DNA of 64,000 bases. It comes from an uncultured Phycisphaerales bacterium (GTDB taxonomy: Bacteria; Planctomycetota; Phycisphaerae; Tepidisphaerales; Tepidisphaeraceae). Numbering within the stretch: position 1 is the stretch's first letter; each line of letters begins with the position of its first letter. The notes beneath the pieces are model-generated. The model had not been told where the DNA came from, did no database searches, and was given only the letters and a program-made list of their open reading frames with translations. Made by a program: the position numbers and the translations under genes. The stretch covers positions 3,072,001 through 3,136,000 of the forward strand of contig CAVWVQ010000003.1 of assembly GCA_963758525.1 (NCBI GenBank). The letters run 5' to 3'. This document shows positions 5,994 to 28,765 of this stretch, in pieces.

Positions 5994-6185
5994 GAACCGC
6001 TGATAAACGCCGATAAACGCAGATTGATCCAGAGACTTCGGTGATTCATTCAATCTGCGTTCATTCGCGTTCATCTGCGGTTCCCTTTCTTCCGTCTGCG
6101 CGCCCGTCAAAGCCTCGGCATCTGCACCTAAACTACGCTCCCTCCGACACATCCGTGCCATCCGTGTAATCCGTGGTCAATCCGG
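5994..6185. repeat. Nonamer-repeat hairpin (arms 5994-6027 / 6050-6083) plus (ATCCGTGxx)n array
   Basis: gaaccgctgataaacgccgataaacgcagattga versus reverse complement gaaccgcagatgaacgcgaatgaacgcagattga; catccgtgccatccgtgtaatccgtgg at ~6150. Confidence 0.8.
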
Positions 6186-14762: not shown

Positions 14763-15592
14763 GCTCTGTCTGACGGATCGAGAACCCTCAGGTATTTCAG
14801 CATGATAGCGAGTTTGGCGAAGCTCAAGAAGTTAAGAGCCAGCTTCTCATAGCGTGTTCCCAGCCGACGACATTCCTTGAGCCATCCGATAGCACACTCG
14901 ATGCGGCTTCGTTTGCGGTAGCTGCTTTTATCGAATCGCTCGCCCTTTGGTCGTGGCTGATTGGATTTGCGCGGGATGACGGCTTCGATCCCGCAATCGG
15001 CCAGGAACTGGCGAACGGTTTCGTAGCTGTACCCTTTGTCGCCCGCGATCTTCCCCGGCCAGCCGATGTGCAGGGGCGCTGCACCGCGTGCATCACCTTG
15101 TGGAGCTGCGTGGATTCGTGCGTTTGCCCCGCGGTAACGGTGACGGCGAGCACAAGGCCCTTTCCGTCAGTAACCACGTGGAACTTTGATCCCCATCCGC
15201 CGCGCGAGCGGCCCAGCGCGTGGTCGGCCGGTTCGAAGTCGAGGCCGCGCCCCCTTTGCGCGCCCGGCGGCAGCGCGAGAAGCACGCACATTGGAGCCGT
15301 CGACGAGCCAGAGATCCCAATCGATCTTGCCCTCCTTGTTGAGTCGAATCCGCAGTGCTTTGAGGATGCGATCGAAGAAGCCTTCGCGCCGCCAGCGGTT
15401 GAAGCGATCATAGACGCTCTTCCATTTCCCGTAGCGTTCGGGCATGTCTCGCCATGGAGCTCCGGAGCGAAGAATCCAGAGCATCCCATTGAGCGTGATG
15501 CGGTGGTCGTTCCATCGTCCGCCACGTTTTTGTACGGGGAAAAGTGCCTTGATCAGGTTCCAGTGATCATCCGTGAGTTCATAGCGCGCCAT
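14759..15592 (-). CDS. IS5-family DDE transposase, split ORFs (orfA 15592-15167; likely -1 shift at AAAGGGGG ~15255; further breaks ~15075 and ~14825)
   Basis: MARYELTDDHW...WRDMPERYGKWKSVYDRFNRW; LGRSRGGWGSKFHVVTDGKG; DKGY; TRYEKLA; ends DPSDRA*. Confidence 0.9.
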
Positions 15593-20700: not shown

Positions 20701-22639
20701 CTAAAACGGCAACGACTGATCCATCCAATCGTCACTGCGGAGCACCTGTTTTCGATTGAACCGCGCGAATCGCTCGGCCTTGGCCTGTGCCATGGCGATA
20801 AGTCGTCCCGCACCGATGGTGCGCCAGGCCTTTCGCGCGATCGGTGCGTGACGCAGAAACAGGTCGTCTTCGGCGCAGGCAAAGAGCTGGGCGCACCCAG
20901 GATCTCCCTGACGGGCGGCTCTGCCGAAGAGCTGGCGGTCGACGCGGCCCGAGCCGTGGGGTTCGGTGGCGATCACGTGGAGACCGCCCATCTCGGCGAC
21001 GCCTTTGGCGAGCTTGATGTCGGTGCCGCGGCCGGCCATGTTGGTGGCGACGGTGATCATGCCGCGGGTGCCGGCTTCAGAGACGATCGAGGCTTCGCGC
21101 GCGGTCTGGGTGGCGTTGAGCACGCGATGCACTTTGCTTAAATCGGTGAGCCGTTTGCTCACTTCCTCCGACGCCAGCACGCTGCGGGTTCCGACGAGAA
21201 CGGGGACACCCTTCTCGTTCAGTTCGCAGACGCGCTGGATGACGGCCGTCCATTTTTCTTCCATCGTATCGAACATGCGCAGCGGAAGCAGCGTGCGGAT
21301 GCACGGGCGGTTGGTCGGAATGCGCACAACGGGGCGCTGATAGATCTGCCAGAGCTCGCCGGCAGATTCCCATGCGGTGCCGGTCATGCCGCTCATGTCA
21401 GGATACTGGCGGAAGAAGCGCTGGAAGCTGAGACGGGCGAGGTTTTCCTTGTCAGCGGTGACATTGACTCCCTCCTTGACCTCGATCGCCTGGTGCAGCC
21501 CGTGCCGCCAGCTTCGATCGGCCATCACGCGGCCCGTGAACTCGTCGATGATCTGCACCTTCCCGTCTTCGGCGACGAGATAATGCTCGTCGCGGACGAA
21601 ACAATGGCGTCCGCACAGCGCCTGCGTCACCAGCTCTTCGCGCCGGCGCTTGCCTTTCCAGAAGCCGGAGGCGGCCGAGAGTTGTTCCAGGCGTTCCTGT
21701 CCATTGGCGGTCAGATCGACGCTGCGAACCGTGCGGTCGATGGTGAAGTCGCGACCGAATTGAAGCTGCTGGGCCAGCTCGTCGGCGGCGCGGTAGTGCG
21801 TGGCATTGGGCTCGTCATCGGGAGAATTGGAAATGATCAGCGGGGTCACCGCTTCGTCGATGAGAAGGCTGTCCGCTTCGTCGACCAGGGCGCGCGCCAG
21901 GCCGGGAACCATCAGCCGCCCCGCAAAGCTGGAGGCGCCGCCGGCGAGTTGACGCACGGAGGTCTGGGTGCTGGTGCGGAGCGTGCCGAGCTGAAGCTGA
22001 TCGCGGAGGAAATCGGCCACCAGCTCCTTGCTCGTGCAGTAGACCACGTCGCGGCGGTAGTGATCGATGCGCTCATTGGCGGGAAGATCATGGACGATGG
22101 CTCCGGCACGCAATCCGAGCATGCGGTAGACCGGCCCCATCTCGTGAGCGTCGCGTTCCACCAGATAATCGTTGACGGTAATCACGTGCACGGGCCGTCC
22201 GCGCCAGGCGAGCAGCGAAGCGGCGAGCGAAGCGGTGAGCGTCTTGCCTTCCCCGGTTGCCATTTCCGCGACGGCGCCGCCGATCATCGCCAGCGCCCCC
22301 ATGATCTGCACGTGGAAGGGCCGCATTCCCAGCGCCCGCCACGCCGCCTCGGCGCCAGGGCCATGGCGCGATCTTCGGCCTCTCCCTCAAGCCGGCCGCG
22401 CCGCGCCAGCGCCGCGCATCGGCCACCGCGTCGCGAAACCGTTCGGCGCCCAGCTCGCGGATCTGAGGCTCGAGCTGCTCGATCCGATCCGCCTGCGCGC
22501 GAAGGCGCGCCAACATCGGCCGGCGGTTCTTAAACCATCCATGCACCCCGTTGGCGGCGGCGTCGAGTCCCTTGAGTTCCGGCGCTTTTACCCGCCGGGC
22601 GTCAAAGATCGCGTAAAGTTCGTCAGTGGCGGAAGTCAT
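20701..22639 (-). CDS. secA: Accessory, C-terminally short SecA-family (SecA_DEAD) ATPase; frameshifted ~22340-22420
   Basis: EMATGEGKT, HVITVNDYLVERD, VDEADSLLIDEA, IIDEFTGRVM, GMTGTA, VATNMAGRGTDI, RVDRQLFGRAARQGDPG; ends shortly after NBD2. Confidence 0.9.
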
Positions 22640-22645
22640 TGGGGG

Positions 22646-22903
22646 GAAGGCACGAAGGCACGAAGGCACGAAGGCACGGAGGGAAGAGGGAACGAGAAGC
22701 ACGAAAGGGACGAGAGGCACGAAGGCACGTAGGCACGTAGGCACGGAGGGGAAGATAGGCGGTGAAGGGGGAGGAAATTCATCGAGTTACTCATGGCCTT
22801 CTCTGATTGCTCGTAAGTGCGCGAAAACTTTGACCGAGGAAGGCACGATGCGAAAATCCGGGCCTGACTCTGATTTTCCCTTCGTGCCTCCGTGCCTTCT
22901 TCC
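22646..22903. repeat. Octamer-array inverted bracket filling the M50-to-secA junction
   Basis: (gaaggcac)n at 22646-22750; complementary ttcgtgcctccgtgccttc at ~22881-22899. Confidence 0.85.
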
Positions 22904-22904
22904 T

Positions 22905-25096
22905 TTACATCCACGGACTGTTCTTCGTCTGAATCAACTGGAGGAACTTTCGCTTCCATTGCACGAACAACGGCGTGCTGTCGAGAGTGAAACGCACGTA
23001 CACGCGCTGGCCGGGATAGTACTTGCCGCTGGGATTCGAGACGGGGACGTCCACCTCAAACTGCTCGTTCTGCGATTTAGTGGGATCCTTGGGATCCACC
23101 GGCTCGTCTTCGCCGCCGGGCTGGGCGACGGCGGGGCTCGGGAGGTCGCGCGTGGCGGCGCCGATCGGACGCGGCGCGCCGGCGGGAACCGCCGTTCCAA
23201 GATCGCCGGCAAATTGCACCGCCGTCTTGTTCACGTGCCCGATGATCAACTGCGATTCAATCTGCTCCAGCAGCACCTTCACGGTCAGCTCGGTATTGCG
23301 GGCGATCGTGCAGATCTCCTGGCCCTTCTGGAGATAGCGACCTTCATACAGATTGATGTCGGGAGCGATCAGCTCGCCATCGATGGTCGCCCGCACGGTC
23401 AGTTCGTCCCGGCGGCGCTGCATTTCGTCGAGTTGCACCTGCAGCGTGTCAACCACTTCCTGGTCGATCGCCTCTTGAGCCGTGTCCTCGGCGCCGAGGC
23501 GAGCATCTTGATCCGAGCCGCCTGCAACTCGGCCTGCTTCTGCGCGATCTGGCTGTCGAGCTCGGGATCACGGCAGATCAGCAGCAGATCGCCGGGCGTT
23601 TTGTCATGCGGACCGTGAACCCATTGATGATCGTGCGCAATCACCTCCGTGACAAAGCCGCCGCGCCGCGCGTTGAGCTTGTCGTGCGCGGTTGCTTCGG
23701 CGATGCCGACCTGTCCGACGTGCATCGGGAAGCGGATCAGCCCGATGACGATGATCGCGATCGCCGCCACCGCCAGGCAGAACGCCGTCGCGCGGCCGCG
23801 CTTGCGATGCAGTTCCGGGTCGAGCGCAAGATACTTGAAGACTTTGACGACCGGGACCACAAGCCAGGTGATCAATCCGCCGATCGCCATCAGCATTCCC
23901 AGCACAGGGATCTGGTAGGCCACGAGCAGGATGATGAGCACGCCGATGAACGTGCGATAGATGGATGACGAAATCGCGTAGGCAAACAGCCAGAAGCGCT
24001 GCAACGGCGGAGGGAGCGGCTGCTGGAGCTTGATGCGGAACACATGCCGCTTGATCAGGCCCATCGCATATTCGGTGCTCTTCTGGCGGAGATTGGGGAT
24101 CTCCAGGAAATCGGAAAGGATGTAATAGCCGTCGTAACGGAGCAGAGGGTTGGCGTTGAAGATGACCGTCGTGACGCTCGCGACAAGCATCGCGTTGAAC
24201 GCAAGCTGGCGGACGAGATGCGTCTCGTTGGTGTTGCGCCAGACGAACGCGCAGAGGGCGGCGAAGAAGAGCTCGACGATCATGCCCGCCGCGCCGACGA
24301 AGATGCGCTGCCATTTGCTTGGGAAAGACCACGCACTGGACGCGTCAACATAGGGCGTGGGAACGAAGACCAGGAACATAATTCCCAGCTCGTGGCATTC
24401 GCCGCCAAAGCGCCGGCAGGAAAAGGCATGGCCCAGCTCATGGATGAGTTTGATGAAGACGAAGACGCTCCAAAGCCACAGCAGGTTGATCGTATTCCCC
24501 TTGATATCGACGGCGTGGCGCGCAGAGTCCTGCAGCCCGTGGGGGCCATTCCACTGGGGGGCGATCACCACCAGCGCCGAGATGATCACCGCCAGCCAGA
24601 CCACCACCCCGAGCTTGCTGAACATGACGCGGGCCAGCGGCATCCACCGGCGGAGAAACCGGTCCGGATCCCACAGCGGAATGCGCGGGAAGAGCACGTT
24701 CATCAGCCGGCCCTGCATCTTGCGCTTGGTGAGCTGCTTGTGCCGGCGGAGCAGAACCGTGGCGTCGGGCGTAACGTCGGCCTCGATCAGATTGGCCGAG
24801 TAAAGATGCGACAGAATCTGGATCACTTCCGGCTGCGTAGGCGCATCGTCGGCAAGCTGTCCGCCGCACAATTCCCACGCTTCTTCGACGGTTCGCGACC
24901 CGTCGAGCAGTCCGACGAATCGGTAAGCCGGGTCGCTGAGCCGGTGAAACTGATTGCCCGCCGGGTCGCGTACGACGTACCAGCGGTCGCCGCGATAGAA
25001 CTGACGCGAGATATGGGCGCTGACGCGCAGCCGCACGCGCAGCTCCGCAACGCGGTACCAGGACTCGGAAAAAGTGGGCCGTAGTTGGAGAGTCAT
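22905..25096 (-). CDS. PqqD-like N-domain + M50 (site-2) metallopeptidase + HlyD-like adaptor fusion; frameshifted ~23480
   Basis: LLDGSRTVEEAW...LSHLYSANLI; KLIHELGHAF (HExxH); FNANPLLRYDGYYIL; C-terminal LTVRATIDG, YYPGQRVYVRF. Confidence 0.88.
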
Positions 25097-25114
25097 CTGG
25101 GGTTCAGTGTGATT

Positions 25115-25630
25115 GAGGGTTCAGGGTGTCAGGGTTCAGGGTGTCAGGGTTCAGGTAGGGAGGACGGGTTAAGATCCAGGGTTGGGCGCAGGGAAGCGAC
25201 GGTCGCTGGGGGCGAGTTGTTGTTCCAAAGTTCTTTCCAGTCCGTTAAGCATTTTTACGCACTCGGTATAGCGCTCGCGGTAGTCGTTATACGTTTCTTC
25301 TGTCAGGTAGCCTTTCAGCATCGCTATGTACAAGTGATGAACCGCTTCCAGCGATTCGCCCCTTGCACGGTTTGCGCCTTCAATTTTATTCCGCACATGC
25401 CGATCGCTGTGCTTCTCGGCCAGTTGCGCCGGAGCGCTGTTCGAACAGCGCCTTATCTGGGACACCAGCTCAAACCGTTCTTCCCTTGGCCATTTCGCGG
25501 ACAGCTGACAAACCTCCAAGTGCAACACGCACAACTTCTGATAAATGCTCAGATCCTCAATCCGCTTAAATCCCACCACAACCATCCCCTCCGAAATCCT
25601 GAACCCGGACCCCTGACACCCTGAACCCTC
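25115..25630. mobile_element. Inverted-repeat-bracketed cassette carrying a four-helix-bundle gene
   Basis: gagggttcagggtgtcaggg (25115-25134) is the exact reverse complement of ccctgacaccctgaaccctc (25611-25630); arms are 7/8-mer tandem arrays (25115-25155, 25598-25630). Confidence 0.7.
25169..25585 (-). CDS. Four-helix-bundle protein (23S rRNA IVP / Avd-like family)
   Basis: FKRIEDLSIYQK...WPREERFELVSQIRRCSNSAPAQLAE...ARGESLEAVHHLYIAMLKGYL...KMLNGL; SD GGAGGGG. Confidence 0.9.
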   Translation of the reverse strand: MVVVGFKRIEDLSIYQKLCVLHLEVCQLSAKWPREERFELVSQIRRCSNSAPAQLAEKHSDRHVRNKIEGANRARGESLEAVHHLYIAMLKGYLTEETYNDYRERYTECVKMLNGLERTLEQQLAPSDRRFPAPNPGS

Positions 25631-25632
25631 TC

Positions 25633-27581
25633 TCACATCCACAACTTGAGCTTCAGGAAGTCGATCAGCCGGTGCGTCCAGATCCAGGCGACGCTGCGCT
25701 TGGCGACGTCGACGCGCGCTTCGCCTTTCATGCCGGGGCGCAGGTGGGGACGGCTTTGCCGGTGAGGGTGACGTAGACGCGGAAATTGTTGGTCCCTTCT
25801 TTCGGATCGGGAATGGGGATGATGCGCTCGACGACAAAATCGAACGAGTCGCCCGGCTGGGCGTTGGTGGCGAGGGTTCCGTGCTGGCCGATGTGAATGT
25901 TCTGGATGTCGCGGTCATCGACGGTCAGTTCGCCGCGCAGGTCGTGATCGCTGCCGATTTCGAAGAGCACGTCGCCGGTCTTGACCGGGGAATCGAGTTT
26001 ATCTTCCAGGTCACCCTTGAGGATCTCCGCGTCGACCGGGGCGACGATCGTGCCGCGGGCGATTTGGGCGCTGAGAAAATCCACTTCGTTTTTAGCTTCT
26101 TCACCTTCCGAGATGGAAACCTGTTCCTCGGCGGTCTTTTCCTCGGCGCGGTAGCGGGCGGCTTCCTTGGTCTTGGTGTTCACGCGGGCCTGCGCCTCGG
26201 CCAATTTCAGCTTCATGTCGGTGGTGTCGAGCATGGCCAGGGTCTGGCCCGCCTTGATCATGTCACCTTGACGGAGCGGCTTGCCATCCGGGCCCTTGCC
26301 CACTTCGCTGATAAAGCCTTCGAAGGGCGCGGGAATCTGGCAATGCGCCCGCGAGGCAAACTCGAACGAGGCGCTGACGTGGTACATCGGCCTGATGACG
26401 AAGATGCCGACGAGGATCAGCGCGACGCCGATGGCGATCAGCTTGCCGAGCATATGCTGCGGGCCAACGGCACGCTTGGCGAGTTCGCGGATGCTGATCC
26501 CGGCTTTGGTGATCAGCCAGCGATCGTTCTGAAATCGGTCGTACAGTTGTGGAGCCAGCAGATCGATGGCGATGCTCAGCGCCTGCCCGACGTTAGGCCC
26601 CAGTTTTTCCTGCGCGGGGAATTCGGCGGTGATGACGCCGATGATCTCATCGCGCCGCCGCAGCGGCAGCGAGAGGACAGCGGCGCCGCCCTGCTCGCGG
26701 GAAAACGCGGCGGCTTCGCGCGTGACGTTCTGGGTGTTTTGCCCGGCGGGATCGAACTGAACGATTTCGTCCTGATCCGCGCATTCCTCCATCACCTTCT
26801 CGAGCGAGACGATCAGTTCCTGTTTCTTGTCGAATTCCTCAGTGTGCGAGATCGCCTTGACGCGGACGTTTCGCCCCTTCACCCAGCCCATGGTCACGCG
26901 CGACGCGTGCGCCCGGCCGGCCAGCTCGTTGCACAGATTCATCGCCGCCGACTCAAACCCTTCGGCCGTCGCGACGGAGGTGGAGAGCTGCAGCACGTGC
27001 TGATGGCTCTCGGCAATCAACTTGCTCTGCTCGGCAAGGCGGCGCAGGGTGAACAACTCGAAATATCCGGCCACGAGCTTCATCGAGTTGAGGCGCTGGC
27101 GGGCGCGTTCCAGATCGAGGCAGCGGGCGATGACCGCGGAGACGGCCACCACCTCGTTGTCCGCGCGCAGGAGCGTGACGAGGCAGAACTGTGTTTCGTG
27201 AGTGTCGCCGGTCATTCCCAGTTCGATTGCGCCGTCCTTCATCTGCTGCACGCAGGGAACGACCAATTCCTGGAACGCCGACACGGCCGCGGTGCGAACC
27301 TGGGCGCTGCTGTTGTCATGGCGGAGATGCGCGAGAAGGCGGAGGGAGACCGATTCGTCCGCGCGTTCGATGAGAAAGCCGACGGCTTCGGTTCCCGCAA
27401 CGGTCGTCGCCTGCGTGCTGATCAGCTCAGTGACGAATGCGGGGAGATCCCGGGCGTCGATCAGGCGCTGCGCCAGCTCCGAGCGGTGCCCGCTGGGTTG
27501 CGCGGTTCCCTGCGCCTGTTCGGCTTCAGAACTTTGCGATGATTCGACTATCCCTTCAGCCACGAATTGCTCCTTGCTCAC
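25633..27581 (-). CDS. HlyD/MFP-family adaptor with N-terminal GAF-like region; frameshifted ~25745
   Basis: GAF-like AAVLSLPLRRRDEIIGVIT; TM; lipoyl-like IPAPFEGFISEV and IVAPVDAEI; tail RPGMKGEARVDVAKRSVAWIWTHRLIDFLKLKLWM*. Confidence 0.85.
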
Positions 27582-27656
27582 TTGCGCTTGCGTGCCGCAT
27601 GCAGATCAGATCAGTTGCGGAGCTGCCCTGCGGGGCAGCCGCTAAACTTTGCCGGT

Positions 27657-28523
27657 TCAGTGCTCCGCGGAGTTGACAGATGCGACGGCGTCCGACGTCT
27701 TCACCTGCACCTGCAATCCCGATTGCCGGCCGGCGGCGTTTGCGAGTTGCAGGCGGACTTTTTGGCGATCGCTCCGGGCATCAGCCTCGGGCGCCACGAA
27801 AATGACCTGCGCCTCGAGCCACTTGTCTTCGCTGGCGTAACGCACGTCCATCATCTGCTGCTTGTGAATGTTTTTCACGACGCCTGTCGGCAGCTCTACT
27901 TCGACATACAGCGGATCGTTCTGGATGATGGTCATGATCGGCTTGGAGACATCCGAAGAGGCAGCTTCGCCGACATGCGTGTTGATCTTCGATACCACGC
28001 CCGCCACCGGACTGCTCAACTGTTTCAGTTTGATCTTCGCCTGCTCCTGCTCGACCTCCGCCATGGCCTTCTGCTTTTCCTGCTCGGCAAGCTGGATGCG
28101 AATGGCCGCGATCACCTCATTGACCTTGGCTTCTTCCAGTTCGCTCTCGCCGACGACGTTATCCTTCCGCATTTCCTGTTTGCGCTTGAGTTCAACCACC
28201 TTGGCGTCGTGATCTGCCTTGGCGGCGATGATCTGCAGATCGGAGTTGGCCTCGACTTGGGCCACTTTCACGGCGGCCTCCTCCAAGACGCAATCCTGCA
28301 CCGCGATCAGTTGGCCGGCCGTTACCACGTCGCCTTCCTTGACCGGCTCTTCGCTCACCACGCCGGGGCCGTTAAACGACACGTCCCGCGACTCGGAAGG
28401 CTTGGTGAAACCGGGATACAGCGTTTCATCGCCTTGCGCGACAACTGTCCCGGCACAAAGCAGCACCAGCCCGGCCCCGCAGCGGCCCCAAGCACCAAAT
28501 CCAGCAAATGTCTTCAAAGCCAT
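27657..28523 (-). CDS. Efflux RND/T1SS periplasmic adaptor subunit
   Basis: Signal peptide; VSFNGPGVVSEEPVKEGDVV; coiled coil; LSSPVAGVV; FVAPEADARS. Confidence 0.88.
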   Translation of the reverse strand: MALKTFAGFGAWGRCGAGLVLLCAGTVVAQGDETLYPGFTKPSESRDVSFNGPGVVSEEPVKEGDVVTAGQLIAVQDCVLEEAAVKVAQVEANSDLQIIAAKADHDAKVVELKRKQEMRKDNVVGESELEEAKVNEVIAAIRIQLAEQEKQKAMAEVEQEQAKIKLKQLSSPVAGVVSKINTHVGEAASSDVSKPIMTIIQNDPLYVEVELPTGVVKNIHKQQMMDVRYASEDKWLEAQVIFVAPEADARSDRQKVRLQLANAAGRQSGLQVQVKTSDAVASVNSAEH

Positions 28524-28765
28524 GAAATCTCCGACGCCAGTTCGCGTATGATTCATCTGAACAGGACCGAGGCCGGGTAAAAGCCCCTAAGCCCCACCTG
28601 CTGTCGCCACACCGAAGCTCAGTTCACTACTTCTGGATCGACATCGCGAAGAAAGCGTCTTGAGGGCGACTGGTAATTCCGCGCATTAATCGCAGAGCCA
28701 GTTTATCAGGCAACTTACCCTCGCGCCAATCCCATGCAACCGTACGCCCGCCCGAGCGGTTCGGT

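Follow-up and report, generated by a model that had tools for sequence, protein, structure and literature searches.

Why does a small gene, enclosed between the arms of a long inverted repeat, stand exactly between the stop codon of one operon gene and the next gene's start codon? The question is raised by a cassette in a 64,000-nt stretch of DNA from an uncultured Phycisphaerales bacterium (GCA_963758525.1, contig CAVWVQ010000003.1, 3,072,001-3,136,000), which is called the window here and to which all positions refer. On the minus strand, between a HlyD-family adaptor gene (25633..27581) and an M50 peptidase/HlyD gene (22905..25096), the cassette comprises a 5' arm of GGGTTCA-type units (25598..25630), a cargo gene for a 138-aa four-helix-bundle protein (25169..25585) and a 3' arm of reverse-complement units (25115..25155). 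With a probability of roughly 55%, we regard it as a small mobile element in its gene-bearing form, otherwise present as about 90 gene-less arm copies, with a protein ring that likely recognises its own unit and that, by prediction, enlists a host enzyme writing the arms.

The stretches 25611-25630 and 25115-25134 form a perfect 20-bp inverted repeat, and the match breaks at 21 bp. The cassette starts 2 nt past the TGA ending at 25633 and stops 18 nt short of the M50 ATG at 25096; an extra single 3'-arm unit (25100..25107, minus strand) lies 3 nt ahead of this start. The second unit of the 5' arm is an 8-nt variant private to this genome, GGGTGTCA. Folding of the cassette region gave -223.7 kcal/mol (z -4.9), and none of 100 shuffles folded equally well. 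In the predicted stem, stop and start come to lie no more than about 20 nt apart; the stem also takes in the upstream TGA, the ATG of the cargo gene and its Shine-Dalgarno (SD)-like GGAGGGG (25586..25592, minus strand).

The cargo protein scores 84.7 bits against PF05635 (cut-off 33.8) and 76 bits against TIGR02436 (cut-off 24). Its AlphaFold model shows four helices (pLDDT 90) and is closest to XCC0516 (2GSC chains, TM 0.77-0.79), followed by BT_0352 and Avd (4DWL, TM 0.62). By likeness to 2GSC, the product very probably assembles into a homopentameric ring. The open reading frame (ORF) coordinates, the family and the arm positions given by an earlier, sequence-only reading of this DNA were correct, and the structural kinship with Avd of diversity-generating retroelements (DGRs) that it had stated is borne out by the model. 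The fold is the same; the cargo protein differs in that it reaches only 21.5 against a cut-off of 80 with the DGR profile NF033474, and neither a reverse transcriptase (RT) nor a template/variable repeat adjoins its gene. DGR membership of the cassette was therefore rejected. As had also been noted from the sequence, no RT or Y1 transposase stands next to the cassette. The genome itself has six RT matches, the nearest about 63 kb away, and 23 Y1_Tnp matches, none inside the window; the RT scanned, a near-identical copy of a genome RT match, scored best as a group II intron RT. In the DGR complex, according to the accessible text of 10.1101/2023.10.23.563531, an RNA stem-loop touches each of the five Avd protomers, whose crevices take up flipped-out bases; base capture of this kind may offer a way to read tandem units.

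The GC content at third codon positions is 61% in the cargo gene and 82% in the M50 gene, because of which the cargo gene looks foreign. Its differences from homologs fall mainly at third codon positions, and the gene is under purifying selection.

Arms and protein clades

In the source genome, tandem arrays form 204 inverted pairs, as compared to 23 in mirror controls. With a strict pattern for the GGGTTCA unit, 43 hairpins were found, i.e. the cassette and 42 gene-less ones, together with 48 single arm groups; the polarity of the hairpins is fixed. One long GGGTTCA hairpin (G000 C5:211311-211473) begins at the stop of a gene lying just downstream of the RNase III match.

Gene and arms co-occur, and high arm counts accompany the cognate gene. 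Among 61 genomes, the five with a full-length gene of the clade have 212, 108, 36, 28 and 21 GGGTTCA dimers, and zero dimers were counted in 47 of the 55 genomes without a clade gene, the other eight having 260, 16, 8, 7, 5, 2, 1 and 1. The 23 PF05635 matches of the five gene-less genomes with most dimers (81-88% complete) include none with GGGTTCA arms. In a second set of 250 genomes of the phylum (completeness at least 93%, a few of them shared with the first set), the clade was without any member found; 20 genomes had any dimer, and the maximum was 15. No p-value is attached to the co-occurrence, because related genomes are not independent.

The unit follows the protein. GGGTTCA-type arms flank all nine close homologs from genome contigs and 29 of 30 metagenome loci (16 with both arms, 13 with one and 1 with none). 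In a tree of 71 rows, from which redundant clade members had been dropped, the GGGTTCA clade is monophyletic (support 99/94), and its sister group, 45-52% identical, has other units. Over 47 labelled rows, with unit labels partly assigned by hand, protein identity correlated with unit similarity (Mantel rho 0.37, with 0 of 2000 permutations as high). The PF05635 paralogs of the source genome have arms of their own; armless ones would have spoken against the sequence-only reading. These comparisons show one repeat unit per protein clade. GxxExxY genes, too, sit within arms: one of them (G000 C3:275448-275795, L010) is flanked by GCGAAGAC arms, and about 30 gene-less hairpins are built of this unit; here an unrelated protein follows the same logic.

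The arms could instead come from an unrelated host process, the gene being a passenger that merely survives within hairpins. The GxxExxY genes, an armless PF05635 clade and the genomes in which arms but no gene were found would fit such an origin, which we nevertheless hold to be hardly probable at all, as a single unit is retained by some 40 members of the clade from two Planctomycetota classes and high arm counts coincide with the cognate gene.

A comparable pairing was predicted for XCC0516, the closest structure, and a GGGAATC array does lie 6 nt after bccP and covers the XCC0516 start in the table of PMC4692102. The GGGAATC arrays of Xanthomonas and Nostoc described there resemble the present arms in being G-rich heptamers of about four units, often in convergent pairs, near stops and starts and in some cases intragenic. 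They differ in that PMC4692102, as far as its accessible parts go, takes them for G-quadruplexes and connects them neither to a gene nor to mobility; its main text does not mention XCC0516, S23 or a helix bundle. Many of the units found here are without G-tracts, and formation of G-quadruplexes is unlikely as a general function.

Movement of the gene

Among 60 relatives searched with the M50 protein, 52 matched, and the junction between the HlyD-family and M50 genes was read in the best 29 of these 52. The cargo gene was at this junction in none of the 29. By our own classification, two genomes of the same genus have a gene-less GGGTTCA hairpin there, and nine have hairpins of other units; the remainder comprise five REP-like (repetitive extragenic palindromic) or other palindromes, one VapD-like gene, four other longer spacers and eight plain spacers of at most 62 nt, one of the plain spacers coming from the unpublished genome G004. 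The VapD-like gene (G006, L042:2746-3111; NF041506, 58.7 bits, below the cut-off) is accompanied by a REP-like palindrome. Presence of the gene at this site in all relatives without arms would likewise have spoken against the sequence-only reading; this is not what the comparison gave.

Other searches led to three further cases. One is a sister of the source genome, L123 (M50 87%, cargo 74% identical), with the cassette at the same HlyD/M50 junction. In L044 the cassette is likewise at this junction and the cargo is 71% identical, yet M50 reaches just 63% identity and is placed far off on the host tree, so that its cassette probably represents an independent arrival. G033 has a cargo gene of only 26-29% identity, with another unit, at the same junction.

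Within the genus the distribution is reciprocal. In G001 and G002 the cargo gene stands between an acyl-carrier and a dehydratase gene, where the source genome has a short armless spacer. In G017 and G022 it stands between accB and accC, where the source genome has a TAATG overlap, and the accB-accC junction of G009 and G032 is occupied by cassettes of other protein clades (these four gene names are our own reading of the translations). Close homologs occupy at least 16 distinct junctions, a locus fetched twice being counted once, and at those on chromosomes the gene follows a host stop in sense orientation. We conclude from this distribution that the cassette is mobile, and the proposal made from the sequence alone, a non-autonomous element at stop/start junctions, agrees with an element that has no enzyme of its own and takes such positions.

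About a dozen metagenome copies are inside an insertion sequence (IS)-like unit, mostly with the 3' arm only. This unit (L134-L138, L140, L142-L145, L147, L149, L151) has a divergent ORF of more than 368 aa without a Pfam or NCBIfam match; its right end is common to the copies, and the flanks beyond differ. It is a possible vehicle between hosts. Among viral contigs and phage records no carriers were found, the only hits being six distant cyanobacterial plasmid records. On an Anabaena plasmid (L214, NC_019429.1), a gene for a four-helix bundle, flanked by long GGTGACA arms, is located between cas6 and cas4.

Writing of the arms

In 51 of 86 hairpin ends, cassette included, the private variant GGGTGTCA stands second when the units are counted inwards. 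The sequence GGGTGTCAGGG occurs in 125 copies in the source genome versus 0, 0, 2, 0 and 0 in five relatives, where GGGTTCG is used, and one old arm common to G001 and G002 retains the older variant. Since most arms have the private variant, the writing or rewriting of most of them is later than the within-genus split. Nearly every one of the 42 loops (17-118 nt) is unique, and as remnants of the cargo gene they were rejected (17.6 vs 17.2 +/- 0.4). Direct 3-, 4- and 5-mers were present in the flanks of 28, 6 and 0 of 43 hairpins, as compared to 27.7, 8.3 and 1.9 in controls, i.e. no target-site duplication was detected. With neither a duplication nor copies alike over their whole length, the hairpins are unlike miniature inverted-repeat transposable elements or IS.

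Thirty-one G001/G002 sites were mapped, comprising 21 out of 26 loci and a further 10 sites taken among the first 30 of 57 matches. Synteny was seen for 20 loci, or 19 sites. At these 19 orthologous sites the source genome has ten tandem-arm elements (nine of another unit), one REP-like element and eight empty sites. The background is 474 of 4773 junctions with tandem-arm elements. Single arms are flanked by the array of another unit on their inner side in 14 of 48 cases and on the outer side in 3 (control 7.8%). We therefore conclude that new elements favour old ones, both from the 10 of 19 occupied sites and from the nesting on the inner side.

In the explanation favoured here, the cassette would probably be expressed by read-through from the host operon and limit itself once the stem hides the SD of the cargo gene; no promoter consensus was found in 25000-25900. 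The ring would, with similar probability, recognise its own repeat unit on single strands. Whether the arms are written in place at breaks or hairpin loops, and not moved as whole units, we consider an even call. Such writing, if it took place on both sides of a break, would account for the polarity, the variable length, the unique loops, the single arms and the nesting. The writing enzyme would come from the host, an RT or a repair polymerase being somewhat favoured over an HUH transposase.

One specific version resembles telomerase: the ring would be the specificity subunit that holds its own arm as template for a borrowed host RT or repair polymerase, and at a DNA break the heptamer would be added to each of the two 3' ends. 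Once joined, these would give the purine-rich arm first, a variable number of units, unique filler loops, single arms and no target duplication. Nesting would follow in fragile old hairpins and a whole gene would occasionally be captured, each protein clade writing its own word. We consider this version unlikely.

Movement of hairpins and full cassette as whole units, cut and pasted or copied by a Y1 (HUH) transposase in trans, is doubtful to the same degree; the four-helix protein would then be an adaptor or a passenger, and the loops would decay. It would follow the logic of RAYT (REP-associated tyrosine transposase) and REPIN (REP doublets forming hairpins), as set out in the accessible text of PMC3116915, where a gene is flanked by its own repeat class, gene-less inverted doublets are many and several classes occur per genome. 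The Y1_Tnp matches of the genome, the lack of target duplication and the movement of the full cassette speak for it, as does a likeness of the loops weakly above that of shuffles. The REPIN/RAYT systems differ in that the cargo here is not a transposase, the arms are tandem runs of variable length instead of palindromic REPs, the loops are not conserved, and half of the arm groups are single. The last two points count against transposition of whole units: loops are nearly all unique although the arms have a young variant in common, and 48 of 91 arm groups are single. Furthermore, sister genomes have different units at identical in-frame spots in radA and mfd, and no Y1 gene adjoins the cassette.

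Several observations weigh against the favoured explanation. The cargo protein is only mildly basic (pI 8.4), and no RT was found in G017 (92% complete), one of the genomes with the gene. The likeness between loops slightly exceeds that of shuffles (14.4 vs 13.1 +/- 0.5 and 27.4 vs 22.9 +/- 0.9), an excess that past copying of units could explain. The main exception to the co-occurrence is G021 (81% complete), with 260 dimers and no clade gene found; G035, G053, G007 and G014 (86-88% complete) have 5-16 dimers without a clade gene, as do six genomes of at least 93% completeness with 6-15 dimers, and in G022 just a fragment of the gene goes with 2 dimers. With gene and arms physically linked, co-inheritance alone could yield much of the match between clade and unit, itself based in part on the manual labels. 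Finally, the armless PF05635 clade (L088, L091, L092, L102) does exist, and no partner arm is listed for the XCC0516 array in the table of PMC4692102.

A protein family with solved structures but no function, and bacterial heptamer arrays of no known origin, are thereby joined in one testable system, to which the source genome adds a dated marker in the private variant, a reciprocal move within the genus and identical in-frame sites at which one unit is swapped for another. Should the ring read its own 7-base word, the clades would provide a natural set of protein-sequence pairs with differing specificities; if it directs the writing of arms, it would represent a mode of spread without a transposase of its own. 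Telomerase-like writing, if true, would explain the heptamer repeats of many bacteria.

RNA-level readings and the host operon

A strong predicted stem that places stop and start within some 20 nt of each other suggests a role in the mRNA: it could be cut by RNase III as an intervening sequence (IVS), or couple the upstream stop to the downstream start. The rRNA IVS with an S23p ORF in Coxiella and Leptospira, described in the accessible text of PMC4990558, is similar in that the same protein family lies inside terminal inverted repeats, with a patchy occurrence and horizontal acquisition. In Coxiella, tandem heptamers precede the ORF, and RNase III cuts at the first heptamer (PMC4990558). An rRNA IVS, situated in a 16S or 23S gene, is excised by RNase III and the ends are not re-ligated. 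An RNase III gene is present in the source genome, and by analogy cutting of the cassette stem is possible. In addition, 26 of 45 stop-facing arm ends are at most 20 nt from the stop, and the TAATG overlap at accB-accC is split by elements in relatives.

The hairpins as a family behave otherwise. At 7 of the 31 G001/G002 sites an open frame runs through the hairpin; six of these were compared with the ortholog in the source genome, and five of the six are in radA, mfd, mnmG, MTAP and IOR. In radA, mfd and one unnamed gene the source genome has a different unit at the identical spot. Hairpins that keep the frame would be translated through rather than spliced out, and the mRNA hairpin likely renders such insertions tolerable. 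Selection at the RNA level, tested by G.U pairs and strand, was rejected, the mRNA strand being no better (13/26; 37/63, p 0.21; 24/56 cassettes). By our own crude gene calls, the genes on the two sides are convergent or divergent at 12 of 43 hairpins, and with 31 of 43 against a background of 64%, there is no clear enrichment at co-directional junctions. No overlapping stop and start was seen at the HlyD/M50 junction of the 29 relatives. The M50 gene lacks an SD-like motif in 26 of 27 scored relatives, with or without arms, and by our own gene calls only 676 of 2310 ATG genes in the source genome have one; the missing SD is the normal state of this gene. What had been noted from the sequence was right as an observation and is rejected as a sign of coupling. 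Excision as a general way of life is unsupported because of the in-frame gene-less hairpins and the absence of a better fold on the mRNA strand, and coupling as a general rule because the M50 SD is missing with or without the element, 12 of the 43 hairpins are not at co-directional junctions and the 29 relatives show no overlap. As the mRNA reading also offers no means of spread, we consider it distinctly improbable as an account of the cassette.

The cassette further differs from the rRNA IVS in lying between protein genes and in having about 90 gene-less arm groups, and excision is unlikely for the in-frame copies. No PF05635 gene was found inside the 23S gene of the source genome, and Rfam gave no match in 24900-25900. 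The single 23S gene does have a group I intron (G000 C3:3672926-3673258, L215:3388-3720; RF00028, 65.3 bits) with internal ATTTGAG-type arrays, and a unit of this type also immediately flanks the 23S gene on both sides. The cassette belongs to PF05635 and works like an IVS or a REPIN system, being a member of neither. In the literature, outside subscription papers and most supplements, no paper linking the PF05635 family to genome-wide tandem-arm hairpins was found; rRNA IVS, Xanthomonas heptamers and REPINs are each treated apart.

A host regulator remains to be weighed. Bound to its unit in many transcripts, the ring would govern their translation or decay, the arms spreading by slippage and gene conversion. 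The purifying selection on the cargo gene and the crowding of arms at gene ends would be expected of a regulator, and a regulatory role has been proposed for TAACTGA heptamers (accessible text of PMC4679880). Sites turn over within the genus, with 8 of the 19 orthologous sites empty here and the same unit in only 2; single arms show no strand bias (22 vs 26), and several unit classes replace one another at a single site. On these grounds we judge this role very improbable, even more so than excision or coupling.

The neighbouring genes have faults of their own. The assembled frame of the HlyD-family gene ends at 25728, and its true C-terminus, the TGA at 25635-25633, is reached only through a 1-nt frameshift near 25740. 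The sequence-only reading, which had a HlyD-GAF gene stopping at 25633, was thus right about HlyD across this frameshift, and no Pfam match to a GAF domain was found at E<=0.001 in the 617-aa part. The M50 gene is split by a frameshift near 23450 into 565 and 183 aa, as compared to 720-780 aa in most relatives. Both frameshifts are probably assembly errors; several further genes of the assembly look split, probably by sequencing errors.

At the next junction of the same operon lies a gene-less hairpin of another unit class (AGGCACGA, 22634..22919), and a further one at 5994-6083 has a unit class different from both this and GGGTTCA. Two overlapping ORFs at 14824-15592, 10 kb from the cassette, resemble an IS5-type transposase in their motifs. 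The host operon (20701-28556) encodes two HlyD-type adaptors, the M50 peptidase-HlyD fusion and a SecA-like DEAD protein, and it is kept in all 36 family relatives searched with M50.

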